A DNA stretch of 56,673 nt from Gammaproteobacteria bacterium (lineage in GTDB: Bacteria > Pseudomonadota > Gammaproteobacteria > JAADHQ01): NCBI GenBank assembly GCA_011052215.1, contig DRJK01000168.1:1-56673 (forward strand). Reading direction: 5' to 3'. Each line of letters starts with the position of its first letter. Positions within the stretch are counted from its first letter, which is position 1. This document shows positions 15,173-56,673 of this stretch, in pieces. Below the pieces are notes generated by a model that saw nothing but the letters and a program-made list of their open reading frames with translations, had not been told where the DNA came from and made no database searches. The position numbers and the translations under genes were made by a program.

Positions 15173-15219
15173 AAAAAAGGCCGGCAACGGATCATCCATA
15201 ATCGCTGTCACCGGCCTTT
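15173..15219 (-). terminator. Intrinsic terminator of the cheW-mcp unit
   Basis: Minus strand reads GGCCGGTGAC...GTTGCCGGCC followed by T6. Confidence 0.65.
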
Positions 15220-15261
15220 CAGTTTAATGCAGACCATCCATGGTCTTATAATTGGCTTCCC

Positions 15262-17346
15262 TTAGAACTCGTCCCACTCACCGTCATCGGTCCCTGTCTT
15301 TGCCATCGGCGCAGGTCTGGCTTCGGCCTTTGGGGCCGTTTTGGTATTATTTGTTAAAACCGGTGGCTCGGAAACTGAACGCGCACTGGCTGACTCGACA
15401 TGGGAACCTGCACCACCACCGACCTTGAAGAAGGAGATCGTCTTGCTCAATCCCTTTGACTGATCGAGCATGGATGCGCTGGCTGCGGCGGCCTCTTCAA
15501 CCAATGCCGCATTCTGCTGTGTCATCTCATCCATTTGCATAATGGCCTTGTTGACCTGCTCAATGCCTGATGCCTGCTCCTGGCTTGATGCCGCAATCTC
15601 GGCAACGATATCGGTCACCTTCTTGATACCATTAACAATCTCTTCCAGGGTCTGGCCGGATTCATTTACCAGTTCAGTCCCGATCTTGACCTTGTCAACA
15701 CTGTCGTTGATCAGATCCTTGATTTCCTTGGCGGCTTCCGAGCTGCGTCCTGCCAGGCTGCGTACCTCGGTGGCCACGACCGCGAATCCACGGCCCTGTT
15801 CACCGGCACGGGCGGCCTCAACCGCAGCGTTCAGAGCCAACAGGTTTGTCTGGAAGGCAATCTCTTCAACCACGCTGATGATGTCGGCAATCTTCTTGCT
15901 GGACGCGTTGATCTCACCCATCGCTTCTATCGCCTTGCTGACAACCTCACCACCCTTACTGGCCTGGTCATTGGCGCTGACGGCCAACTGGCTGGCCTGG
16001 TTGGCATTATCGGCATTCTGTTTAACCGTTGATGTCATTTCTTCCATACTGGAAGCGGTTTCCTCCAGACTCGATGCCTGCTCTTCAGTCCGCTGGCTCA
16101 GATCCATATTGCCACGGGCAATCTCTTCGGAACCGGAGTTAATCGCGTCAGTGCCATTACGCACCTGGCCGACGATACCCGACAGACTCTCTGCCACACT
16201 GTTCATGTCTACCAACATGCGGCCCAGCTCATCTCTGGAATTAACCTCATAGCGGTTGGTCAGGTCGCCTTCGGCGATCTCTTTCAGGCCCGCTGCTGCA
16301 ATCGCAACAGGTCTGGTGATCATGCGTATCACAAAAAAGGCAACGAACAAGGCAATCAGTACTGCGACAACACCCAGCACCAACATAAAGTTTTCCAGGT
16401 CATGGCCTTTTTTTACGGCCAGGGCAATATCGGTATCCGCCAGTCCTTGCTGGTTCTTGATCATGGCAGTGAGTGATTTAATCAGCTTGCCTGCGTGCGG
16501 TGCGGCCTTGGTACCCAACCACAGATTGGCCAGGTTCCAGCCCTTTGAGCCACGGATTTCAAACATCTTCGGTGGCAGGCCCTTGAACTCGTCACGTGCC
16601 TTGCTGAACCTGCTAAACGCTGCTGCCTGCTTTGGCGTCAACAACTTTTTGTTCTTCTGCAGGTCGGCATAGCGTCTGATGTTCTTGCTCCAGAACTTAT
16701 TGAAGCCATCGCTGAATTTCTTGTCGCCTGTCAGCAAAAAGGCGCGGATATTGGCCAGTGACAGGCCGGTGGTACCGCGAACATCGGCCATCATACCCAG
16801 CAGCGCCTTGCGTGCCGGTGTGGCGGGCAGTTTGGTCTCCATATTAATAATATTGGTGATCTCGGTAACCATGACCTTTGCCCTGGGGGCCGCTTCCTGG
16901 ACGAGTATTTTGGTAGCCGGGGTGTCATCAATCGTACCGCTGATGGCTTCGATCTCACTTTGTGCCTTGGCAAACTCTTTCAGGGTACCTGCCATTGCAT
17001 TCAGTTTTTCGACATTGGCGGAGTTGGTCCAGTTCCTGGAAAACTTGATCATCCTGCTATAGGAGTCATTGATTTCTTCCCAGGCCGCCTGGCGCTCTTT
17101 TTTGAATTTATCTGCCCCCAGAATCATATAACCGCGTAAACCAGCCAGAGACTGGTTGATGCCATTGAGCATATGATTGGATGCCAGTATTGTAGGTGTG
17201 CGCAGTTCAAACACACGGGTATTAATAACCTGGCTTGAGTTGATACGACTATACGCCATGGTGACAGTTACCACTATAATAATGGCCATAATGGCAAAAC
17301 CACCACCGATCTTTTTACCTATACCTAGATTTATCAGCCATTTCAT
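15262..17346 (-). CDS. Methyl-accepting chemotaxis protein (tandem 4-helix sensor, HAMP, signalling domain, C-terminal pentapeptide)
   Basis: [30 protein letters not shown] hairpin tip and C-terminal EWDEF. Start placed at MKWL behind an AGGAG RBS. Confidence 0.95.
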
Positions 17347-19206: not shown

Positions 19207-20736
19207 CTAGCCCTCTTCCCTCTTGAACTGCTCACCCAGACCGGAAAGCAGCTTGACCTTTTCTGCCATCAGCCCGCTTGCAGAGGCCGCCTCTTCAACC
19301 ATTGCCGCATTCTGCTGTGTCAATTCATCTATCTGCATAACCGATTTATTGACCTGCTCAATACCTGTCGCAAGCTCCTGACTGGAGTTTGCCATTGCCG
19401 ATACGATACCGGTCACTTTTTGCACGCCGTTAACGATGTCATCGAGCGACTCACCCGACTTTTCCACCAGGGCAGCGCCACGTTCAACATTGGCCACACT
19501 CTCATTAATCAGACCTGCAATTTCCTTGGCCGATTCGGCACTGCGTCCCGCCAGGTTACGCACCTCGGCTGCCACCACGGCAAAACCACGACCCTGTTCA
19601 CCGGCACGCGCGGCCTCGACCGCTGCATTGAGTGCCAGCAGGTTGGTCTGAAAGGCAATTTCATCGATAACACCGATAATTGCAGCAATCTTTTTGCTGC
19701 TGGTGTTGATCTCTCCCATGGCATCGATGGCCCTGGTGACCACCGCCCCGCTTTCCTCGGCATGTTTAAAGGTTGTTTGCGCCAATTCGTCGGCCTGGTG
19801 TGCATTTGCGGCGCTCTGTTTCACCGTGGATGACATTTCTTCCATGCTGGCCGCGGTCTCTTGCAGGCTGGAGGCCTGCTCTTCGGTACGCTGCGACAGA
19901 TCCATATTGCCATTTGCTATTTCTGTCGATGTTTTTTCAAGCACCTCGGCGGATTCCTTGACACGCACAATTGCAGTACGCTGTCTTTCAATATTATAGG
20001 TCAGCGCATATTCAAGCTGCCCCAGCTCATCTGTCCTGCCTGTGTAGATAAACTGTGCCAGGGGATCATCGGCCATCTTGTGACATTCTGCCGACAAGTG
20101 GCGCAAATGTGCCAAGGCAGAATAAACCAGCAAACTGCCGACCACTCCACCAACCACCATTGCAATACCTGCCCCCACCAGGGAAAGTTGACCGCCAACC
20201 GCAAGACTGCCCAGTGTTACAGCCAGTATTCCTGCAAACAGGGCCATCATTTTAGTGGTAAAGGAGAACGGGAAACGGCTCAGCGTAACCTTGTCCATTT
20301 TTGAACGGCGCTTGTCATCATCCGACTTGCCGGCCATGATTTTTGCATATAATTTGTCTGCACGTTTCACCCATTCGACCCTGGGTTTTACCCGCACAGA
20401 CTGGTAACTGGTAACATTGCCACCTTCATAACGCGGGCTGGCATAGGCATTGACCCAGTAGTGGTCGCCATTCTTGCTACGGTTTTTCACCAGGCCCATC
20501 CAGGGCTTGCCTGCCTTCAGGTTATCCCATAACATATTAAAGGCCTCGGGTGGCATATCCGGATGGCGAATAATATTGTGGTTCTTGCCCTCCAGTTCTT
20601 CCCAGCTGTAACCACTCAAATGAATAAAATCATGATTGGCTGAAGTTATAATGCCTTTCATATCGGTAATGGACGTGATTTCAATCCCATCACTGTAATC
20701 AATTTCCCTGCCTGTGACCGGCCTGTTTATCTTCAT
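19207..20736 (-). CDS. aer: Aer-like PAS-domain chemoreceptor (aerotaxis/energy taxis)
   Basis: [11 protein letters not shown] start, [20 protein letters not shown] and [17 protein letters not shown] motifs, a hydrophobic anchor and an MCP signalling domain. Confidence 0.9.
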
Positions 20737-22882: not shown

Positions 22883-23436
22883 TCCTGTACCCTTTTGATA
22901 CGTACCGCCTTTCGCCCCCATGTCAGCACATAATCAAGGCCACTCAAAACGGTTGTCGCCAGCACGATAAAGAACAACATATCAATAACTCCAGGCGGAA
23001 ATGCAAACAGGCCCTGGTGCATCAGGATAACGATCACCAACAGTATCTGCACTAATGTATTGATCTTGCCGATCAACATGGGTGCCGCATTGGCGCGTTC
23101 AACCCTGTAGTAATAGTACACGCCACCACACACAATCAACAGGTCACGAATAATAACTGCCGCCAGCAACCACAACGGAATCCAGCCCAGCCAGGTCAAT
23201 GTGATATAGGCCGACACCTGCATGGCCTTGTCGGCCAGTGGATCCAGCCAGCCACCCAGGTGACTTCCCCAGTGATATTTTCTGGCAAGGTATCCATCCA
23301 GTGCATCCGACAGCCCGGCGACAACAAAAAGGGCCAATGCAACATCATAACGGTGTTGTAACATTGTCCAGACAACGGGCATGATGAGTAACACCCTTAT
23401 AAAGCTGATCAGGTTGGGTATGTCACTTTTTTTCAC
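22879..23436 (-). CDS. CDP-alcohol phosphatidyltransferase
   Basis: SDALDGYLAR...GGWLDPLADK signature. Confidence 0.92.
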   Translation of the reverse strand: MKKSDIPNLISFIRVLLIMPVVWTMLQHRYDVALALFVVAGLSDALDGYLARKYHWGSHLGGWLDPLADKAMQVSAYITLTWLGWIPLWLLAAVIIRDLLIVCGGVYYYYRVERANAAPMLIGKINTLVQILLVIVILMHQGLFAFPPGVIDMLFFIVLATTVLSGLDYVLTWGRKAVRIKRVQE

Positions 23437-27855: not shown

Positions 27856-27929
27856 CACTGCTGCCCCGTTAACTTTATGAGGCACATACAAATGTGAGGA
27901 CATGGAATCGTTAAGGCTGATCAAGACCG
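27856..27929 (+). mobile_element. MITE-like element copy 1 (truncated, one end only)
   Basis: CACTGCTGCCCCGTTAACTTTATGAGGCAC...TGTGAGGACATGGAATCG...GATCAAGACCG matches the start of copies 3 and 5. No second TIR appears before the dcd stop. Confidence 0.8.
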
Positions 27930-27941
27930 GGTGCCGGCACC

Positions 27942-38771: not shown

Positions 38772-39206
38772 ATGAATAAGAACTTTATCCAAAAACCACT
38801 GGCTGCAGCAATGGGCGCTGCTTTTCTGACATCTGTCTCAGCAATGTCTGTGGCTGGAACAAATCAAAACCCGTTCTCAGCAACACAACTGAACAACGGT
38901 TACATGCAAACTGCGGCAGCAGAAGGCAAATGTGGCGGCCAGAAAGAAATGAATAAACCCAAGGAAGGTAAATGCGGCGGCAACAAGGTAATGAAGAAAA
39001 GTATGGAAGGTAAATGTGGTGCCAGCAAGGAAATGAAGAAAGGCAAGGAAGGTAAATGTGGTGCTGCCAAGGTCAAGAATGAAGGCAAGTGTGGCGGTAA
39101 AAAAGGAATGGTGAAAAGCATGGAAGGAAAATGCGGCGCCAGCAAGCAAGCGAAGAAAGCCAAAGAAGGTAAATGTGGTGAAGGCAAGTGCGGTGGCAAG
39201 AAATAA
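38772..39206 (+). CDS. hvfA: Bufferin/HvfA (oxazolin)-type RiPP precursor with a Sec signal and 8 EGKCG repeats
   Basis: Signal peptide, NPF motif and eight EGKCG units, mostly 14 aa apart, ending EGKCGEGKCGGKK. Directly upstream of a DUF692 gene. Confidence 0.88.
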   Translation: MNKNFIQKPLAAAMGAAFLTSVSAMSVAGTNQNPFSATQLNNGYMQTAAAEGKCGGQKEMNKPKEGKCGGNKVMKKSMEGKCGASKEMKKGKEGKCGAAKVKNEGKCGGKKGMVKSMEGKCGASKQAKKAKEGKCGEGKCGGKK

Positions 39207-40850: not shown

Positions 40851-41447
40851 ATGTTACTGACCATGCAAAATTTATTGAATCGCACCCGCGCATTCGACTT
40901 CATCGCACCACTCGCCATACGACTCTACCTGGCACCAATTTTCTGGATGGCCGGCATGACAAAATTCAACAGCTTTGAAGATACCTCGGCCTGGTTTGGT
41001 AATAAGGAATGGGGGCTTGGTCTGCCGTTTCCGGATATCATGGCCTTCCTGGCTACAGGTACCGAACTCGCCGGGGCTGTCATGCTGATATTTGGCCTGG
41101 GTGTACGCTGGATCAGCGTCCCCCTGATGGTCACGATGTTTGTTGCCATATTCCAGGTGCACTGGAAACACGGCTGGCAGGCCATAGCCGATGCCAAATT
41201 CTGTATGTTTAATTGCTCCGATGCACAGGGATCTATCGAAAGACTGAGTGCAGCAAGAGATATTCTGAAGGCACACGGCAATTATGAATGGCTAACCGAA
41301 CATGGCAGTTTCGTTATATTGAATAACGGAATTGAATTCGCTGTCACCTATCTTATCATGCTGCTGGTTCTGTTCTTTTACGGTGCCGGAAAATATGTCA
41401 GCGCGGATCACTGGATAGCCCGGTATTTTATGAAAAACCCGGCTTAG
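40851..41447 (+). CDS. DoxX-family membrane protein of the MNIO cluster
   Basis: IRLYLAPIFWMAG, WGLGLPFP, VHWKHGW, NNGIEF and GAGKYVSAD. Confidence 0.9.
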   Translation: MLLTMQNLLNRTRAFDFIAPLAIRLYLAPIFWMAGMTKFNSFEDTSAWFGNKEWGLGLPFPDIMAFLATGTELAGAVMLIFGLGVRWISVPLMVTMFVAIFQVHWKHGWQAIADAKFCMFNCSDAQGSIERLSAARDILKAHGNYEWLTEHGSFVILNNGIEFAVTYLIMLLVLFFYGAGKYVSADHWIARYFMKNPA

Positions 41448-41543: not shown

Positions 41544-41778
41544 CACTGCTGCCCCGTTAACCTGTAACAAATATAGTTGAAAGGTAAACGGCAAGTCGAT
41601 TTTGAACTAAACAGGGCATTGCGGACATGAAACCGGCATAGCCAAATCAAGACACGCAAAAGACGCCATCCCTGGCCGCTCGGCTGCCGCATCCCTGCGG
41701 CAGACGGTCTTTATTTGGCTATGCCGATTCCATGTCCTCACATCGATGCTCGTTTCAAAAGTTAACAGGGCAGCAGTG
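41544..41778 (-). mobile_element. MITE-like element copy 2 (235 bp)
   Basis: TIRs CACTGCTGCCCCGTTAAC and GTTAACAGGGCAGCAGTG. The 9-bp flanks ATAATTTAT and ATAAATTAT differ at 1 position. Internal 31-bp stem. Confidence 0.9.
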
Positions 41779-41847
41779 ATAAATTATATATCTTTGCAAG
41801 ATATGCTGTTTCCAGCACCTTCGTGCAGAAGCGGCCATGGTTCGTAT

Positions 41848-43533
41848 CTACATGCTGTTTTTCTTACTCCATGTATCTCTCAGGGTTACCGTGCGGTTGA
41901 AGACAGGCCGATTGCCGCTGACGTGCGCCTCATCCAGGCAGAAATAACCTTCACGCTCAAACTGAAACTGCTCACCTGGTTTAGCATCTGCCATGCTCAA
42001 TTCAATAAAACATTGGGTTAACGTCCAAAGTGAATCGGGGTTTATAAATTCCTTGTAGTCCTTGCCTGCACTTTCCGGGGCAGGAAGATTAAACAACCGG
42101 TCATACAGACGGATTTCAGCCTCGATTGCATGTGTAACCGATACCCAGTGTATGACCCCCTTTATTTTTCTGCCTTGCGGATTTTTACCCAATGTGTCGG
42201 GGTCATAGGTACAACGCAACTCGATAATATCGCCATTATTATCCTTGATTACCTCATTACATCGAATCACATAGGCGTTTCGCAAACGTACTTCTCCACC
42301 CGACACCAGTCGCTTGAATTTCTTGTTTGGGGCCACCTCCAGAAAATCTCCACGGTCTATATATATTTCGCGACCAAACGGAATTTTGCGTGTCCCCATT
42401 GACTCATCCTGCGGATGGTTCGCTGCATCCAATTCTTCCGGGTGGCCTTCCGGGTAGTTCTCGATTACCACTTTCAATGGATGCAGTACTGCCATACGCC
42501 GGGGGGCATGTTCGTTCAAATCTTCGCGTATACAGTTTTCCAGTACGCCCATTTCAACCGTATTATCAGACTTGGTGACACCAATACGATCACAGAAATC
42601 ACGGATAGACCTCGATGTAAAACCCCGTCTTCGCAAACCCGCTATGGTAGGCATGCGTGGGTCATCCCAGCCATCAACATGACCCTCCTTAACCAGTTCG
42701 GTCAATTTGCGTTTACTGACAATCGTGTATTGTAAATTCAGCCTTGAAAACTCTATCTGCCGTGGGTGGCAGGGAATGGAAATATTATCCAGAACCCAGT
42801 CATACAAGGGTCGGTGGTCCTCAAACTCCAGTGTACACAGGGAATGGGTAACTCCTTCCAGGGCATCGGATATCGGATGGGTATAATCATACATCGGATA
42901 GATGCACCATTTTTCACCTGTCTGGTGATGGATGACACCATGCCGAATACGATACAGGGTCGGGTCACGCATATTGATATTGGGTGAGGCCATGTCTATC
43001 CTGGCACGCAGCACACGCGCTCCATCTTCGAACTCACCCTCTTTCATACGTTTAAACAGGTCCAGGTTCTCTTCAACTGTTCGATTACGGCAGGGACTTT
43101 CGCGACCCGGTTCTTTCAATGTGCCGCGATATTCCCGAACCTCATCTGCACCAAGATCACAGACAAATGCCTTGCCATTTTTTATTAACTCCACTGCATA
43201 ATCATGTAGTTGCTGGAAATAGTCAGATGCAAAATACAAACGGCCACCCCAGTCAAAACCGAGCCATTTTACATCCTTCTGGATTGCGTCAACAAATTCC
43301 TCATCTTCCTTGTGTGGATTGGTATCGTCAAACCGAAGGTTACAGGTTCCATCATAGTCTTTCGCGATACCAAAATTAAGGCATATAGATTTGGCATGAC
43401 CAATGTGAAGATATCCGTTCGGCTCAGGCGGGAAACGTGTTGCCACCTTGCCTTCATTTTTACCCGTCTTGATATCTTCGTCGATTATATGGCGTATAAA
43501 ATTATTGGGGCTGACTGTTTCCTCAACACTCAT
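41848..43533 (-). CDS. glnS: Glutamine--tRNA ligase
   Basis: [37 protein letters not shown] and FQFEREGYF. Confidence 0.98.
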
Positions 43534-47238: not shown

Positions 47239-47274
47239 TCACTGAATTCTGCTGTTTTTGTTTGTATCTGAATC

Positions 47275-47505
47275 CACTGCTGTCCCGTTAACTTTATGAA
47301 GCATATAACAATGTGAGGACATGAAACCGGTAGGCCTGATCAAGACCGTCTGCCGCACGGATGCGGCAGCCGAGCCGCCATGGATGGCATGTTTTGCGCG
47401 TCTTGATCCGGCCTACCGGTTTCATGTCCGGATTACTCTATCTAGCCCGAAACGTACTTGCCGCTTACATTTCAACTATATTCGCCATGGGTTAACGGGA
47501 CAGTG
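47275..47505 (+). mobile_element. MITE-like element copy 3 (231 bp, opposite orientation to copies 2 and 4)
   Basis: CACTGCTGTCCCGTTAAC ... GTTAACGGGACAGTG, with a 3-nt deletion in the right TIR. Flanks are ATCTGAATC and ATCTGAACC. Confidence 0.9.
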
Positions 47506-47572: not shown

Positions 47573-48787
47573 TCATTGCTTTCTGGCGGCGATCCGCATT
47601 CTCAAGGCATTAAGTTTGATAAAACCCTCGGCATCTTTCTGGTTATATGCCCCTTCATCATCTTCAAAGGTGGCAATATTTTCATCAAACAGGCTATCTG
47701 TTTCTGACATTCTGCCAATAACATTAACATTACCTTTATACAACTTCAGTCTGACTGTTCCATTCACCGTACTCTGTGAGGCATCTATCATTTTCTGAAT
47801 CATCAGACGCTCCGGACTCCACCAGTAACCGTTATAGATCAGGCTTGCATAACGCGGCATCAGTTCGTCTTTCAGGTGTGCCACTTCGCGATCCAGTGTG
47901 ATTGACTCGATCGCACGATGCGCCTTGAGCATGACCGTGCCTGCGGGTGTTTCATAACAACCGCGTGATTTCATTCCTACATACCGGTTTTCAACAATAT
48001 CATCACGGCCAATTCCATTATTGCCTGCAACCCGGTTTAGTGTTTCCATGACCCGGGCAGGAGAAACAGCCTTTCCATCTATTGATACGATATCGCCTTT
48101 TTCATACCCCAGTTCTATGCAGGTTGCCTTATCAGGTGCCTTTTCAGGTGAAACTGTCCAGCGCCACATATCCTCTTCCGGTTCGGCCCATGGATCTTCC
48201 AGTATTCCGCCCTCATATGAAATATGAAGTGAATTGGCATCCATTGAATAAGGTGACTTTCCGCCTCTTTTCTGTTCGACGCTGATGCCATTCTTTTCTG
48301 CATAGGCCATCAGTTTTTCACGTGAATTCAGGTCCCACTCACGCCAGGGGGCAATAACCTTTACATCCGGCATCAGCGCATAGGCACCCAGTTCAAACCG
48401 CACCTGGTCATTACCCTTGCCGGTTGCCCCATGCGAGATTGCATCTGCTCCGGTTTTACGGGCAATTTCAACCAGACGTTTGGCTATCAATGGCCGGGCA
48501 ATCGATGTCCCCAGCAAGTATTCACCCTCATAAATCGTGTTGGCGCGAAACATGGGGAATACATAGTCACGTGCAAATTCCTCACGTAGATCCTCTATAT
48601 ATATTTCCCTGATTCCGTATGCCTCGGCCTTTGCACGTGCTGGTTCGACCTCTTCCCCCTGACCAATATCGGCCGTAAAGGTGACTACCTCACATCCATA
48701 GGTATCCTCGAGCCATTTCAAAATAACCGACGTATCCAGACCGCCTGAATATGCCAGCACGACCTTCTTGACCCCTGTCTTTGACAT
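47573..48787 (-). CDS. argG: Argininosuccinate synthase
   Basis: [23 protein letters not shown] and [16 protein letters not shown]. Confidence 0.98.
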
Positions 48788-48830
48788 TGATTACTCCTGA
48801 CTGCAACATAATGTTTATTATATCGTTATT

Positions 48831-49065
48831 CACTGCTGTCCTGTTAACCTGTAACAAATATAGTTGAAACATAAACGGCAAGTCGGTTTTGAGCTAAACA
48901 GGGCATTGCGGACATGAAACCGGCATGGCCAGATAAAGACACGCAAGTGATGCCATCCCTGGCCGCTCGGCTGCCGCATCCCTGCGGCAGCCGGTCTTTA
49001 TCTGGCCATGCCGGTTTCATGTCCTCACATTGATGCTTGCTTCAAAAGTTAACGGGACGGCAATG
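48831..49065 (-). mobile_element. MITE-like element copy 4 (235 bp) with a perfect 9-bp target-site duplication
   Basis: CACTGCTGTCCTGTTAAC ... GTTAACGGGACGGCAATG. ATCGTTATT occurs at both 48822-48830 and 49066-49074. Perfect 31-bp internal stem, 48910-48940 with 48994-49024. Confidence 0.93.
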
Positions 49066-49082
49066 ATCGTTATTATAATACT

Positions 49083-49952
49083 TCATTCCCGTTCCAACTC
49101 CACCCTCACACGCCTGTTTTTTGCCCTTCCCTTCGCAGTACTGTTACCACGAGCGGGTTTACGTTTTCCGAAATATTTGACGTTTAGTTTGGATATTGGA
49201 ACCTTGCGGCTTATCAGGTAATCCCTGACTGCCAATGCACGCCGCTCGGATAATTCATTATTATCGGTATGCGTTCCAACATTATCCGTATGACCGGCTA
49301 CATAGACTTTTTTTACACTGTGATCACGGATCAGGTACGCAATCATGCCCTCGAGTTTACGTTTTGCCTTTACAGTAAGCTTGTATCGGCCGGAATTGAA
49401 GTACAACATGGATTTTTTTACTTTATTGTAATCATACGGGATAATCTGTCCCACACAGACCCGGAACTTTGCCAACGCATCACGGAATCTTACCGTTGAT
49501 AATACTGCCGATACATCGTCATGCCCGTCGCCCCAATCCTTGAATTTAAAAACGGGGCGCATTCCCTGCTCAAGTTCTGACAGCAATCTTAAACTCAGCT
49601 TTCTATTGAATCGAAAGGGTGTTTCACCTCTTCTATAGGAATACTTGCCCAGGTTGCGCGATTTGCGATTATGCTTCCACTCAGGCGGCATGGATACCAG
49701 CGTAACCTTGCCTTTTCTAACCGGCGATTGATTAATGAAGAACCGGAATTTCTGGCGGTAACCGGCCAGTTGGTAAAATTCGGCCTGACCAAAAAATTTG
49801 ACCGGGTGTTTCAATGTACAGCGCAGGGGTGAAGAACTGGTTTCCCAGCTGGAATCTTCCAGGGTTGCTTCATAATTCAACTGGCCAGCCAGTGCCTGAC
49901 CGGCTGTGCCCGCTATAAGCCCCAGTACAAAAAACCGTATTAATTGCCGCAT
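49083..49952 (-). CDS. motY: MotY-like flagellar motor protein (MotY_N + OmpA domain)
   Basis: YEATLEDSSW..CTLKHPVKFFGQAEF N-domain with two Cys, then OmpA motifs GHTDNVG, LSERRA and NRRV. Confidence 0.85.
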   Translation of the reverse strand: MRQLIRFFVLGLIAGTAGQALAGQLNYEATLEDSSWETSSSPLRCTLKHPVKFFGQAEFYQLAGYRQKFRFFINQSPVRKGKVTLVSMPPEWKHNRKSRNLGKYSYRRGETPFRFNRKLSLRLLSELEQGMRPVFKFKDWGDGHDDVSAVLSTVRFRDALAKFRVCVGQIIPYDYNKVKKSMLYFNSGRYKLTVKAKRKLEGMIAYLIRDHSVKKVYVAGHTDNVGTHTDNNELSERRALAVRDYLISRKVPISKLNVKYFGKRKPARGNSTAKGRAKNRRVRVELERE

Positions 49953-49995
49953 CGTCCTCACATGTTTATCTTTAAGAATCAGGTGCCTATCCATG

Positions 49996-50046: not shown

Positions 50047-53000
50047 TCATCTCTTCTTGCGACTGCTGCGACGCAATCGTGACAGCAGTCTCCGCGACAT
50101 TTCACCGAACATCTCGGTCTGCGTTGGATGTGGATGAATGGCATGAGCGACCTGTTCCAGCGTCAGCTCGCCCGCCACCATCATGACGCCCTCACCAATC
50201 AGGGTATCGGCATGGTCAGCCAGGAAATGGACACCGACAATCCGATGATTTGATTTATCTGCCACAATTTTGATCATTCCATGTATTTCGTTGGTAATCA
50301 TGGCCTTGGCATCAATACTCATCGGCATTTTCACTTCGACAGCATCGATCCCTTTTGATTTGGCCTGATCAACAGACAGACCAACGAAAGCGGCCTCCGG
50401 TCGAGTGAATATGACCCCGCTATCCTTATCCTGATCATAACGCATGTCTTCACCAACGATGGTTGCCGCGGCCACCCGCCCCTGTTGCCCGGCTGTATGG
50501 GCCAGCATGAGGCCCCCCACCACGTCTCCAACCGCAAAAATGTGAGGGATACTGGTACGGCTGCGCGCATCGACCCTGATAACGCCCGCAACAGCCTCGA
50601 TACCGGCATTGTCCAGTTGTAATGGCTCCAGCACGGGCCGTTTCCCGGTTGCCATCAAGACGTAATCACAACTGAAGGTATGATCCTTGTCGTCGTCTTC
50701 GGAGGTGTAAACCAGCCTCATCGCACCCGGCTTGCCCTTGATGGACTTCACCTGTGCAGACGTATGAATACTCAGATTCGGATCATCATTCAACACCGCG
50801 GTCAGGTACCTGGCAATTTCCGGCTCCACTTCTGCCAGAATACGGTCCTGCCCTTCGATCAATTTAACCTTGCTGCCAAAGTCCTGGAATATTTGCGCCA
50901 TTTCCATGCCAATCGCACCACCACCGACAACACCCAGCCGTTTTGGCACTTCCTTCAACCCCCAGACGGTATCCGAGGTCAACACACCATTCTTTTTCAT
51001 GGCATCATGGGCACCGGGGATAGGTGGCACAAACGGGGGTGCGCCAGTTGCAATAACGGCACAACCAAAGCGGATGCGTTCTGATTTTGATCCATCACCC
51101 GCCGGGGCCCGCTGATGGGGATTGTTGCTGTTTCCAGATTGATCGATTTGCAGTGTGTGATCATCCTCGAACCGTGCGAAGCCGTGGATGTACTTTATTT
51201 TCACGCCCTTGTCTGTCTTGAGTGCCATCTCACCCCGCGTATCCAGTACATGGCGACGCGTCTTTTCCAGCTTGCTCCAGCTCAGTTTTGTATTGGTCGT
51301 ACCCTCTACGCCAAGGTGTACGTCATGGGCACGGTCACGGATGCGATCGGCAGCGGCACGCCAGGCCTTGGACGGGATGCAGCCTCGCCATAAACATTCG
51401 CCCCCCGGGAGCGGCGCATCATTAACCATGGCAACCTTGATACCATGCCCGGCGAGATCACGCGCACAATCCTCACCGCCTGGACCTGCACCGATGATAA
51501 CCACATCATAGTCCCAGTCACCTTCCGGAATAGCCGGGCCCGTTGGCCCCATCCAGGCATCCGGATGTTCGATCATGCCTTTCAGTGTGTTCAGATATAA
51601 CGCAACTTCGGCGCCATTAACGACGCGATGATCGGCGGTAATGGTCAACGGCATACCATCCGGCCCGGCTGAAGAGATGGCGAGGATGGCCGCCGTGCCC
51701 GGTGTCGGGATGGCATCAAAATAACTGACACCCAACATGCCCATATTGGAAACCATAAATGTCGGGTTTGAATATTCTTCCGGTGACAGACGGCGTTTAC
51801 GCGCACGATCAACCAGGTCTTTCCAGTTGTCGTTCAACTGGTCCAGGCCGGTGGATTCACATGCCCTCAGAATCGGTACAACCAGCCCGCCACCTTCTGA
51901 CGAAACCGCCATGCCAACATCGACCTGGCTTCGTTCAACCAGTTTGTCGACAGGCTGGTAACACCAGTTCATGGTTGGATGCCTGTGTATTGCCAGTGCA
52001 CAGGCCTTGGCTATGGAAACCGTGAGCGAGACACCTTTTTTCTTTGATGATTTTATCAGAGCCCCTGGTTTTACATTCACCGTGACATTAAATGTCGGCA
52101 TGCTTAACGATGATGACATGGTGTGACTGATTGCCCGCTCCATGGCATTCATGGGTCGGCCGTTACCCGGAACAATCACTTCAGAAACAGATGATGCAAG
52201 TGTTCCCGTTGGTGCCGCCTGCTGGCTTGCCAGCACATCTGCCGATGTAATTACACCTGCCGGCCCTTTACCCTGAACGTTGTTCAGATCGACCTTTGCC
52301 TGACCGGCAACTTTTCTTGCCAGCGGTGTTGCCTGTTTGTTATTCGGTCTGGATGCCGGAGTGGATGCCGATGCCGATTGAATCGTGTACGAAGAAGCCG
52401 TATTCGCTGTCGATGCTGATGGACTGTTTTCTGTCGATCCAGCCCCGGTTACATCTGATTTTATAATGGCACTTTCACTGACTACATGCTGCTCGCCCTC
52501 GACGAGATAGGCCATGGCAACACCCACGGCAACAACGCTGTCTACCTCTGCTATCGGTCCGGAAAGATAACCATCACGGAATACCTCGACATCCATAATG
52601 GCCTTGTCGGTTTCAACCTGCGCCACAATCTCGCCGCGTTTGATCCGGTCGCCTGCTGACTTGACCCACTCGACAACAATGCCTTCAGTCATGGTGTCGG
52701 AAAGTTGTGGCATTTTGATTGTATGCACCACCCCTTCAGGCTCGGGTGCTGCTTCTGTTGTCCGGGCATTATCACTGGGGCCGGTTGTTTCTGTCTCTAT
52801 CGGGTCATCACCGGCATCAGGGGTTGCTGCCGACGATTCACCCTCCTGCACCTTGTCCTGACTGTCAACAATATAGCCGACAGGACCACCCACCGGGACT
52901 GTACTGTCCACAGCAGAAAGCGGGCCGGAGAGAAAACCGTCACGAAAGACCTCGACATCCATGATCGCCTTGTCGGTTTCGACCGTCGCGACAATATCAC

Positions 53001-53103
53001 CACGTTCAACTTTATCGCCGACATCTTTTTCCCAGCTAACGATGACACCTTCGGTCATGGTGTCCGATAGTTGCGGCATTTTTATTTCATAAGGCTCTGA
53101 CAT
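50047..53103 (-). CDS. Fused dihydrolipoamide acetyltransferase (E2) and dihydrolipoamide dehydrogenase (E3)
   Basis: Two lipoyl domains (ETDKA twice), a subunit-binding domain (ATPLARK..GKGPAG), E2 catalytic SNMG and DHRVVNG, then in-frame E3 motifs GAGPGG, GGECLWRGCIPSK, GGGAIG and HPTQTE. Confidence 0.92.
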   Translation of the reverse strand: MSEPYEIKMPQLSDTMTEGVIVSWEKDVGDKVERGDIVATVETDKAIMDVEVFRDGFLSGPLSAVDSTVPVGGPVGYIVDSQDKVQEGESSAATPDAGDDPIETETTGPSDNARTTEAAPEPEGVVHTIKMPQLSDTMTEGIVVEWVKSAGDRIKRGEIVAQVETDKAIMDVEVFRDGYLSGPIAEVDSVVAVGVAMAYLVEGEQHVVSESAIIKSDVTGAGSTENSPSASTANTASSYTIQSASASTPASRPNNKQATPLARKVAGQAKVDLNNVQGKGPAGVITSADVLASQQAAPTGTLASSVSEVIVPGNGRPMNAMERAISHTMSSSLSMPTFNVTVNVKPGALIKSSKKKGVSLTVSIAKACALAIHRHPTMNWCYQPVDKLVERSQVDVGMAVSSEGGGLVVPILRACESTGLDQLNDNWKDLVDRARKRRLSPEEYSNPTFMVSNMGMLGVSYFDAIPTPGTAAILAISSAGPDGMPLTITADHRVVNGAEVALYLNTLKGMIEHPDAWMGPTGPAIPEGDWDYDVVIIGAGPGGEDCARDLAGHGIKVAMVNDAPLPGGECLWRGCIPSKAWRAAADRIRDRAHDVHLGVEGTTNTKLSWSKLEKTRRHVLDTRGEMALKTDKGVKIKYIHGFARFEDDHTLQIDQSGNSNNPHQRAPAGDGSKSERIRFGCAVIATGAPPFVPPIPGAHDAMKKNGVLTSDTVWGLKEVPKRLGVVGGGAIGMEMAQIFQDFGSKVKLIEGQDRILAEVEPEIARYLTAVLNDDPNLSIHTSAQVKSIKGKPGAMRLVYTSEDDDKDHTFSCDYVLMATGKRPVLEPLQLDNAGIEAVAGVIRVDARSRTSIPHIFAVGDVVGGLMLAHTAGQQGRVAAATIVGEDMRYDQDKDSGVIFTRPEAAFVGLSVDQAKSKGIDAVEVKMPMSIDAKAMITNEIHGMIKIVADKSNHRIVGVHFLADHADTLIGEGVMMVAGELTLEQVAHAIHPHPTQTEMFGEMSRRLLSRLRRSSRKKR

Positions 53104-55447: not shown

Positions 55448-56488
55448 ATGAACTCAATGCAATCCATCACACTCACCCGTCCAGATGACTGGCATTGCCA
55501 CATTCGAGACGGCGATGAGATGGCGTCGGTGATCGGCCACAGCACCAGACAATTTGCCCGTGCCATCATTATGCCCAACCTGAAACCAGCGGTGACCACG
55601 ACCGATGAAGCCGGTGCCTATCGTCAACGCATCCTGTCCTGCCTGCCCGGGAATGCTGACTTCGAACCACTGATGACGCTGTACCTGACCGATAACACAA
55701 CAAGTGATGAAATCAAAAAGGCCCATGACAGCGGTTTCATTCATGCGGTCAAACTCTACCCGTCCGGTGCAACCACCCATTCAGATGCCGGAGTTGGCCA
55801 GATTAAAAAAACCTGGCCAGTACTGGCCAAAATGGCTGAACTCGGGATGCCACTACTGGTACACGGTGAGGTGACAGACCCTGACGTCGATATCTTTGAC
55901 CGGGAAAAAATATTTATTGAACAACAACTGATCCCTGTACTGGATAACATTCCGGATTTACGCGTGGTTCTTGAACATATCACTACCCGGGAGGCCGTTG
56001 AATTTATATCGGCTGAATCGGAACGGGTCGCGGCAACCATTACGGCCCACCACCTGTTAATGAACCGCAACGCAATGTTCAATGGCGGATTACACCCGCA
56101 TCACTATTGCCTGCCTGTATTAAAAAGAGAGCAACATCGCCAGGCATTGATAGAGATTATACAAAGTGGTCATCCCCGGTTCTTCCTTGGAACAGACAGC
56201 GCACCCCATGCCAGAAACACAAAGGAAAGCAGTTGTGGCTGTGCCGGCATCTTTACTGCCCATGCCGCCATGGAGCTTTACGCCGAGGCATTTGAACAGG
56301 CACAGGCGCTCGACAAGCTGGAGGCCTTTGCCAGTTTCAATGGACCCGACTTTTACGGACTACCACGCAATACCAAAAGAATCACGCTGACAAAAGAAAG
56401 CTGGCAGGTACCACCTGACTATCCCTTGACGAAAACACAATCCGTGATCCCGTTAAGGGCCAATGAAGAAATCAGCTGGAAACTTTGA
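55448..56488 (+). CDS. pyrC: Dihydroorotase
   Basis: PDDWHCH, KLYPSGATT, HGE, EHITT and GTDSAPH. Confidence 0.97.
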   Translation: MNSMQSITLTRPDDWHCHIRDGDEMASVIGHSTRQFARAIIMPNLKPAVTTTDEAGAYRQRILSCLPGNADFEPLMTLYLTDNTTSDEIKKAHDSGFIHAVKLYPSGATTHSDAGVGQIKKTWPVLAKMAELGMPLLVHGEVTDPDVDIFDREKIFIEQQLIPVLDNIPDLRVVLEHITTREAVEFISAESERVAATITAHHLLMNRNAMFNGGLHPHHYCLPVLKREQHRQALIEIIQSGHPRFFLGTDSAPHARNTKESSCGCAGIFTAHAAMELYAEAFEQAQALDKLEAFASFNGPDFYGLPRNTKRITLTKESWQVPPDYPLTKTQSVIPLRANEEISWKL

Positions 56489-56574: not shown

Positions 56575-56673
56575 CACTACTGTCCCGTTAACTTTATGAA
56601 GCACATAACAATGTGAGGACATGGAATCGGTAAGCCTGATCAAGACCGTCTGCCGCACGGACGCGGCAGCCGA
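56575..56673 (+). mobile_element. MITE-like element copy 5 (cut by the window end)
   Basis: CACTACTGTCCCGTTAACTTTATGAAGCAC... is near-identical to copy 3 through the first inner hairpin. Confidence 0.88.

Follow-up and report, generated by a model that had tools for sequence, protein, structure and literature searches.

Can a mobile element carry binding sites for a global post-transcriptional regulator through a genome? The question is raised by positions 48910-49024 of a 56,673-nucleotide stretch of Gammaproteobacteria bacterium DNA (contig DRJK01000168.1 of assembly GCA_011052215.1; the window, below, is this whole stretch), which had been read from the letters alone as a mobile repeat delivering a pair of CsrA/RsmA-type hairpins on a long covarying stem. 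[quoted passage not shown] The overall reading favoured here, with a probability of roughly 0.45, is that this MITE carries as conserved cargo a probable dual CsrA-type site, a reading drawn from comparison of sequences.

The mobility that had been proposed is borne out by terminal repeats, target duplications, copy number and empty sites. Both ends of the three complete copies in the window (copies 2, 3 and 4) carry the terminal inverted repeat CACTGCTGTCCCGTTAAC (consensus CACTGCTGyCCCGTTAAC), which has 242 matches in the genome at three mismatches or fewer, 226 of them within MITE loci. Duplications of 9 bp can be read directly from the sequence at copy 4 (ATCGTTATT, at 48822..48830 on the left and 49066-49074 on the right) and at copy 3 (GrTTCAGAT, that is, G(G/A)TTCAGAT). 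A profile search of the whole 2.61-Mb, 183-contig draft assembly returned 240 non-overlapping loci, 111 of them full length, of an element that measures about 233 bp and lacks a transposase gene; together they account for 41 kb (1.6% of the total). MITE copies are places where the assembly is broken, and because 59 of the 240 loci touch contig ends the true number is probably higher. Copies are almost exclusively intergenic, with 1-2 of about 140-175 lying within open reading frames (ORFs). Further, in a related population represented by contigs of the DNA runs X6 and X7, the sites of two window copies are empty: position 47273 is joined to 47514 at copy 3 (240 bases skipped) and 48828 to 49070 at copy 4 (241 bases skipped), the latter joint agreeing in size with the target duplication and lying 3 bases off within a TTA run. 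Such empty sites point to recent movement of the element. Over the core at 47303-47403, summed contig depth in runs X2, X4, X6 and X7 is hundreds to more than 1000 times that of the flanks (in X6, for example, 76,151 at the core and 59 at the flanks), so that the MITE is very abundant in those communities, copies in other organisms included.

The predicted architecture of the core also holds. Copy 4, folded on either strand, gives a 31-bp stem that closes a junction bearing two small hairpins, at energies of -123.9 and -128.9 kcal/mol (z -10.7 and -12.8), and none of 200 shuffles was as stable. Folds and covariation place the 5' arm of the stem (GGACATGAAACCGGCATGGCCAGATAAAGAC) at 48910..48940 and the 3' arm at 48994..49024. 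Hairpin A, at 48952..48963 on the minus strand, reads GCCATCCCTGGC on the plus strand and GCCAGGGAUGGC on the minus strand, with a 4-bp stem and an NGGA loop; hairpin B, at 48970..48991 on the minus strand, reads GCTGCCGCATCCCTGCGGCAGC on the plus strand and on the minus strand has a 9-bp stem with the loop GGGA within CAGGGAUG. Across copies the long stem measures 29-31 bp and the spacing of 23 nt between the hairpins is constant, at model columns 123 and 146 in 128 copies, the two loops being separated without gaps in 68 aligned cores from several organisms. The covariation claimed for the stem arms is real: both partners have changed in 18 of 29 pairs, and pairing holds in 97.5% of cells (68 cores, GGA strand), far above every shuffle or slid control. 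The stem is, nonetheless, a DNA palindrome in a mobile element, and its covariation is therefore by itself no evidence of RNA function.

These structural results could also suit a generic RNA hairpin of the kind seen in Correia, ERIC or REP elements, serving in either orientation as an RNase III substrate, a 3'-end stabiliser or a terminator-like block for which the loop is irrelevant. Both strands fold equally well, the stem is kept by compensatory change at 18 of its 29 pairs, and the copies are nearly all intergenic and randomly oriented; precedents exist in the RNase III cleavage of Correia elements and the RNase E cleavage of ERIC elements that are mentioned in a 2024 review of prokaryotic MITEs (PMC10969869). 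Against this, a DNA palindrome keeps its arms complementary with or without RNA, and a 25-fold contrast between N and GGA positions within the same four-base loops, described below, is left unexplained. The generic hairpin is quite unlikely, although it and the CsrA reading are mutually compatible.

The loops read CANGGANG on one strand, hereafter the GGA strand. In the window the octamers stand where they had been reported: CATCCCTG (equivalent to CAGGGATG on the other strand) at 48954-61 and 48977-84 in copy 4 and at 41667-74 and 41690-97 in copy 2, CATGGATG at 47379-86 and CACGGATG at 47356-63 in copy 3, and CACGGACG at 56656-63 in copy 5. The accompanying claim that only the N positions vary is true of these copies and describes a strong tendency genome-wide, where both octamers fit in 122 of 149 complete centres and both GGA triplets are kept in 130; it fails for the remaining 19, which have lost GGA in one or both loops.

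The element was also followed beyond this genome. Among 40 relatives searched, one carries the MITE, the sister genome G003 (79% complete), and three further genus members lack it. When 185,579 species genomes were scanned with the centre, the MITE was also seen in other vent and sediment gammaproteobacteria, among them metagenome-assembled genomes (MAGs) titled Thiohalobacter sp., uncultured Thioalkalispiraceae and Gammaproteobacteria HyVt-581. Since a scan based on the centre is biased towards intact centres, it was left out of the conservation rates and replaced by searches with the left arm only (genome G041) and with the outer frame only (metagenome contigs; CGGACATG...CATGTCCTCAC). In G041 there are three MITE subfamilies with strongly divergent arms and stem and a nearly identical centre. 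Of the 123 outer-frame matches in metagenomes, 66 have the long stem, and all 66 (64 distinct) have the twin-hairpin centre.

In the 64 metagenome cores obtained independently of the centre, variants make up 1.0% at GGA (4/381) and 0.8% at the A before N, as against 25% at N1 and 25% at N2, each with three or four alleles; the hairpin stems stand at 2.1-3.3%, the junction at 5.8% and the long stem at 9.3%. Fisher tests separate GGA from the stems (p=0.039), from the junction (p=2e-5) and from N (p=3e-23), with the reservation that the copies are phylogenetically related and the tests consequently overstate significance. The twin hairpin is held under sequence constraint, and a contrast between N and GGA within one four-base loop is hard to explain without a constraint on the triplet itself, which quite probably exists. 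It might be argued instead that there is no selection and that the centre looks conserved because the family is young and horizontally spread, its stem and arms mutating or recombining faster. Every class of core position is, after all, only 2-3% off consensus within this genome, the empty sites show recent activity, and the same centre recurs in the Thiohalobacter, Thioalkalispiraceae and HyVt-581 MAGs. Youth alone is nonetheless an improbable explanation, as stems diverge by about 23% and arms by about 30% between subfamilies (counted by eye), with both octamers kept except at N, and as N1 and N2 vary at 25% with three or four alleles directly beside a triplet at 1%.

What, then, could read the triplet? 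The CsrA binding consensus (CANGGANG) is a GGA triplet that follows A-N in a short hairpin loop, a CsrA dimer can bridge two sites 10-63 nt apart, and RNA complexes exist for RsmE; the consensus and spacing rules are said to go back to work by Dubey in 2005, Schubert in 2007 and Mercante in 2009. The MITE loops, 23 nt apart, fall within this bridging range, and the loop positions that vary freely are those that the consensus leaves free. The genome contains, as had been anticipated, a canonical csrA gene (C134:10066-10224, 91.5 bits to PF02599), whose product matches solved CsrA/RsmA at E=1e-29 (1vpz) and RsmE at 3e-23 (2jpp). Because the host protein is nearly identical to well-studied ones (roughly 90%, E. 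coli or Pseudomonas), the CsrA reading is directly testable, and it is rather likely that CsrA would bind GGA-strand RNA in vitro. That such binding is the reason for the conservation of the module is a more tentative proposition, with somewhat less than an even chance. A second, divergent csrA-family gene lies at C9:27239-27436 and has counterparts in G001, G002 and G004 (38-45 bits). Its candidacy as an adaptation to the MITE was rejected, two csrA-family genes being present in 4 of 4 complete genus genomes whether or not these bear the MITE.

If a copy is transcribed on the GGA strand, its 30-bp stem would present two ANGGAN-loop hairpins 23 nt apart, a predicted dual site that one CsrA dimer could bridge, and such transcripts would tether or titrate CsrA. 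Given random orientation, about half of the copies would be transcribed in this sense. A more speculative step, modelled on what happens to Correia elements, is that RNase III trims the long stem and so could set free a small RNA with both hairpins. The module would then be cargo of the element lineage, possibly derived from GGA-hairpin repeats of the genus, and would not have been domesticated copy by copy. A bolder extension, which we think unlikely, is a mobile decoy layer of variable copy number, in which transposition bursts would scatter hundreds of CsrA tethers through untranslated regions and so buffer or rewire the Csr regulon between strains; this layer would be variable even between close strains, because copies 3 and 4 are already polymorphic between populations.

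Several results weigh against the CsrA reading. Within this genome, GGA is no better conserved than its surroundings, with 24 variants in 768 (3.1%) against 1.8-3.0% at neighbouring bases, 2.0% (53/2688) in the hairpin stems and 3.0% in the junction, and in the sister genome G003 the triplet is lost in 4 of 14 hairpins; the comparison of GGA with its neighbours, by which the original prediction was to be judged, is favourable in the 64 metagenome cores and unfavourable here and in G003. The small hairpins are conserved as sequence, with none of 12 pairs compensatory (0/4 in hairpin A; 0/8 counted in hairpin B), a kind of conservation for which CsrA binding gives no need. At the closing base of hairpin B the most frequent change is A-to-G on the TCC strand (48 of 128 copies, 31 of 68 cores from several organisms); pairing survives there but is lost on the GGA strand, where the closing A-U becomes unpaired (A.C) in the same 31 of 68 cores. 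Relative to its arms the centre is flipped in 18 of 172 copies of this genome and in 6 of the 64 metagenome cores, as expected of recombination between stem arms. There is no bias of orientation relative to genes: with gene calls from a crude ORF caller, GGA is sense to antisense in 36:23 cases between co-directional genes (p=0.12), 79:70 facing 3' gene ends and 66:64 facing 5' ends. An earlier count of 36:20 (p=0.044), based on the strand of the best hit, has been superseded by the figure of 36:23, which uses the orientation of the centre itself and more copies. Nor is there a replication bias, the MITE standing at 61:79 relative to GC skew (p=0.15) while genes stand at 1211:658. Control by covering a ribosome-binding site, one way in which host mRNAs might come under Csr control, is geometrically impossible, since each loop is 100 nt or more from the ends of the element. 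The window gave 0 matches to Rfam at gathering thresholds, and RF00018 (CsrB), the one Rsm-type family searched for, was not found in the genome. Finally, a chance match to a 6-base motif is to be expected somewhere among the about 250,000 windows scanned.

Much of this would sit well with a role at the level of DNA, in which the twin hairpin is kept for mobilisation or maintenance of the element and its likeness to a CsrA site is coincidental; it might be a site for transposase or a host factor on double-stranded DNA or an extruded hairpin, or a spacer that keeps a long palindrome viable. Conservation is seen at the level of the element lineage and not at individual insertions, the hairpin stems are kept as sequence (0/12 compensatory) in contrast to a freely covarying long stem, copies are oriented at random with respect to transcription, the centre flips yet persists, and the same centre is present in all long-stem relatives. 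Other observations are awkward for such a role. Cut-and-paste transposases of the IS4 family are known to work at the ends of an element and not at a hairpin in its centre; a loop that is asymmetric and strand-specific (TCC-N, where N is free) is unlike a palindromic double-stranded operator; the replication-orientation bias that a single-strand mechanism might give is missing (61:79); and the coincidence of the free positions with the N positions of the CsrA consensus would go unexplained. On balance a DNA-level role is rather unlikely, and the probable dual CsrA-type site is preferred, in a restricted form: the constraint acts on the spreading lineage and individual insertions look neutral. 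No domesticated copies are in evidence, and widespread cis-regulatory domestication is very unlikely.

The closing-base change could also be turned into an argument for the opposite strand. Loops reading CAUCCNUG on the TCC strand are exactly complementary to the CANGGAUG loops of host hairpins and to Shine-Dalgarno-like GGA, and might pair with them as anti-decoys. The octamers are complementary by construction, and the A-to-G change keeps a G-U pair on the TCC strand and leaves A.C on the GGA strand (48/128; 31/68). This proposal is nonetheless highly improbable: the likeness to a host unit described below (at C161) is confined to the GGA strand, distinct G-U variants are not in excess on the TCC strand (31, as against 38 on the other), and we know of no precedent for a TCC-strand anti-decoy. 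By the same figures, the G-U wobbles originally noted on the GGA strand in copy 2 do not amount to a general rule, and there is no strand-specific wobble signal. A count by cells, 268 versus 135 in favour of that strand, was rejected because it is driven by two high-frequency pairs (85.183 and 88.180).

The host lineage also keeps ANGGAN-loop hairpins outside the MITE. A scan for CANGGANG loops closed by at least three further pairs, with the MITE excluded, yielded a second repeat (family 2), whose 51-nt unit comprises hairpin 1 (NNNN-CANGGANG-NNNN), TTAT, GCCGC, hairpin 2, AGGA and GCGGC, that is, two hairpins with invariant CANGGANG loops (C-A-N-G-G-A-N-G) and an unpaired AGGA. In hairpin 1 of 17 units, 100% of cells pair, 3 of 4 pairs are compensatory, and C, A, GGA and G are invariant or nearly so. 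Tandem arrays occur at C75:6650-6775(+), C72:5425-5563(-), C31:1-85(-), C79:23309-23417(+) and C82:10198-10359(-), where they break the assembly (arrays C72/C31, C79/C82 and C75); isolated units were seen at some six further loci (C118, C137, C170, C180, C114, C156, C161), with relatives at L065-L075. Family 2 is present in 5 of 5 genus genomes, the three that lack the MITE included, and often stands directly behind the T-run of a terminator. It represents either Csr-type decoy RNA genes or another mobile repeat; the conclusion that the lineage maintains such hairpins would apply whichever its nature. A scan for native decoy RNAs by ANGGA density (at least 9 per 250 nt) returned only two coding windows.

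Family 2 and the MITE centre share CANGGANG loops and a similar spacing, 25-26 nt in family 2 and 23 nt in the MITE, and differ in architecture: family 2, unlike the MITE centre, has covarying hairpin stems, tandem arrays and often terminator-adjacent positions. Aligned on its GGA strand with the unit at C161, the MITE centre reaches a significant score of 34, where the best of 500 shuffles reached 25; no such alignment to that unit was obtained with the TCC strand, and the GGA region at C161 has only sub-threshold chance matches in Rfam. Homology of the centre to the tandem arrays themselves was not significant (p=0.08-0.4), the C161 unit alone scoring. The MITE may have taken its centre from the GGA-hairpin repeats of the genus. 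MITE copies lie within about 20-200 nt of two family 2 sites, at C79:23066-23293 beside 23309-23417, where the first unit is preceded, about 35 nt upstream, by the MITE end, and at C156:19834-19932 near 19590-19680. In G041, hairpins GGCCGCATCCCTGCGGCC occur outside the MITE at L021:3486-3556 and 772-821, with the loop of MITE hairpin B and a slightly different stem. Deletion variants L041 and L047 of G041, together with one 107-base metagenome match, have recombined their octamers with the loss of 23 bases, a single chimeric hairpin being left.

Viewed against known systems, the element belongs to the bacterial MITEs and not to the CsrB/Rsm families of RNA genes. MITEs can carry promoters, IHF sites and RNase targets. 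With Correia/NEMIS elements of Neisseria, ERIC/IRU of enterobacteria, RUP and Nezha, the present element shares a small non-coding form, terminal inverted repeats and target duplication, as well as high intergenic copy number, a long RNA hairpin if co-transcribed, and insertions that are polymorphic between strains. It differs from them in its IS4-type ends and 9-bp duplication and in that its most conserved part is the apical ANGGAN twin hairpin and not the ends. With the CsrB, CsrC, RsmX, RsmY and RsmZ decoys it shares A-N-GGA-N hairpin loops, pairs that a CsrA dimer could bridge and a canonical CsrA in the host; unlike these decoys, it has only two sites, no dedicated promoter or terminator and no Rfam match, and it is mobile, present in both orientations and at 240 loci. 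The dual CsrA sites of mRNA leaders (glgC, pgaA, hcnA-RsmE) likewise involve two GGA hairpins, and the 23-nt spacing of the MITE lies within the 10-63 nt that a dimer can bridge, but in the glgC, pgaA and hcnA leaders one site overlaps the Shine-Dalgarno sequence, whereas both MITE sites lie at least 100 nt inside the element.

A MITE with a CsrA-type site as cargo appears undescribed in the literature searched. The terms CsrA, Hfq and RNA-binding were absent in a term search of the 2024 review (PMC10969869), and full-text literature outside subscription journals on CsrA or RsmA together with MITEs or repeat elements yielded only an Rfam paper, in which the terms have nothing to do with each other, and a Grad-seq paper. 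If the reading is true, a MITE that distributes the binding sites of a global post-transcriptional regulator would offer mobile DNA a new means of reshaping a regulon and would make strains differ in their Csr control. If the loops do not bind CsrA, the element would be an ordinary, very abundant IS4-type MITE with an unusually conserved centre.

As to what moves the MITE, the sole DDE_Tnp_1 gene of the genome belongs to an IS4-family insertion sequence (C71:104-1281; 226.9 bits to NF033592, cut-off 115; domains DUF4372 and DDE_Tnp_1), whose ends (CACTAGCGTCCGGTTAAC) agree with those of the MITE in 14 of 18 bases and which is flanked by the 9-bp duplication ATGCAyTAT. A start codon is missing from its transposase frame, and a search of the draft assembly found no transposase enclosed by ends exactly like those of the MITE; the IS4 link is consequently one of family and not of a proven partner. 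The insertion site of this IS4-family element is itself a MITE copy. One Y1 transposase gene, RAYT or IS200-like, lies at C103:35968-36303 between inverted GTAGGGTCAGACTCGA hairpins. A RAYT/REP origin of the GGA hairpins was considered and rejected, as the hairpins flanking this sole Y1 gene are of a different, GTAG type, and the locus seems to be a REP-type system of its own, with no relation to the GGA hairpins.

Within the window, the flanking genes were identified as glnS, argG, pyrC, a gene for a PAS-GGDEF-EAL protein and one for a MotY-like protein (below the curated cut-off), in agreement with the names first given to glnS, argG, motY and pyrC. Copy 4 (48831..49065, plus strand) is complete and in model orientation, with TCC loops on the plus strand and GGA loops on the minus strand, and lies between the MotY-like gene (49083-49994, minus) and argG (47573-48787, minus). 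Copy 2, also complete (41544..41779, plus strand; core 41623-41737), has its GGA loops on the minus strand and stands between the convergent HvfX-family gene (40851-41447, plus) and glnS (41848-43533, minus). The third complete copy, copy 3 (47275..47505, minus strand), presents its GGA loops on the plus strand, antisense to the flanking genes. Copy 5 (56575..56673, minus strand), of which the window end leaves only the right half, lies downstream of pyrC (55448-56488, plus) and has its GGA loop CACGGACG on the plus strand. A right-arm remnant without the twin-hairpin centre (27856..27936, minus strand) corresponds to model positions 152-232.

Two GGA motifs were also noted in the window outside any MITE, in a 3' untranslated region at 15180-15250 (minus strand), where a hairpin AGACCAUGGAUGGUCU just past the stop codon is followed by a terminator whose loop holds UAUGGAUGAU. 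Lastly, the output of a repeat finder contains a tandem family with 42-nt spacing and two pairs of segments that are 72-78% identical and 3798 and 366 nt apart (38919-39188; 15477-16126 versus 19275-19924; 52499-53006), all of which are probably coding repeats or paralogues.

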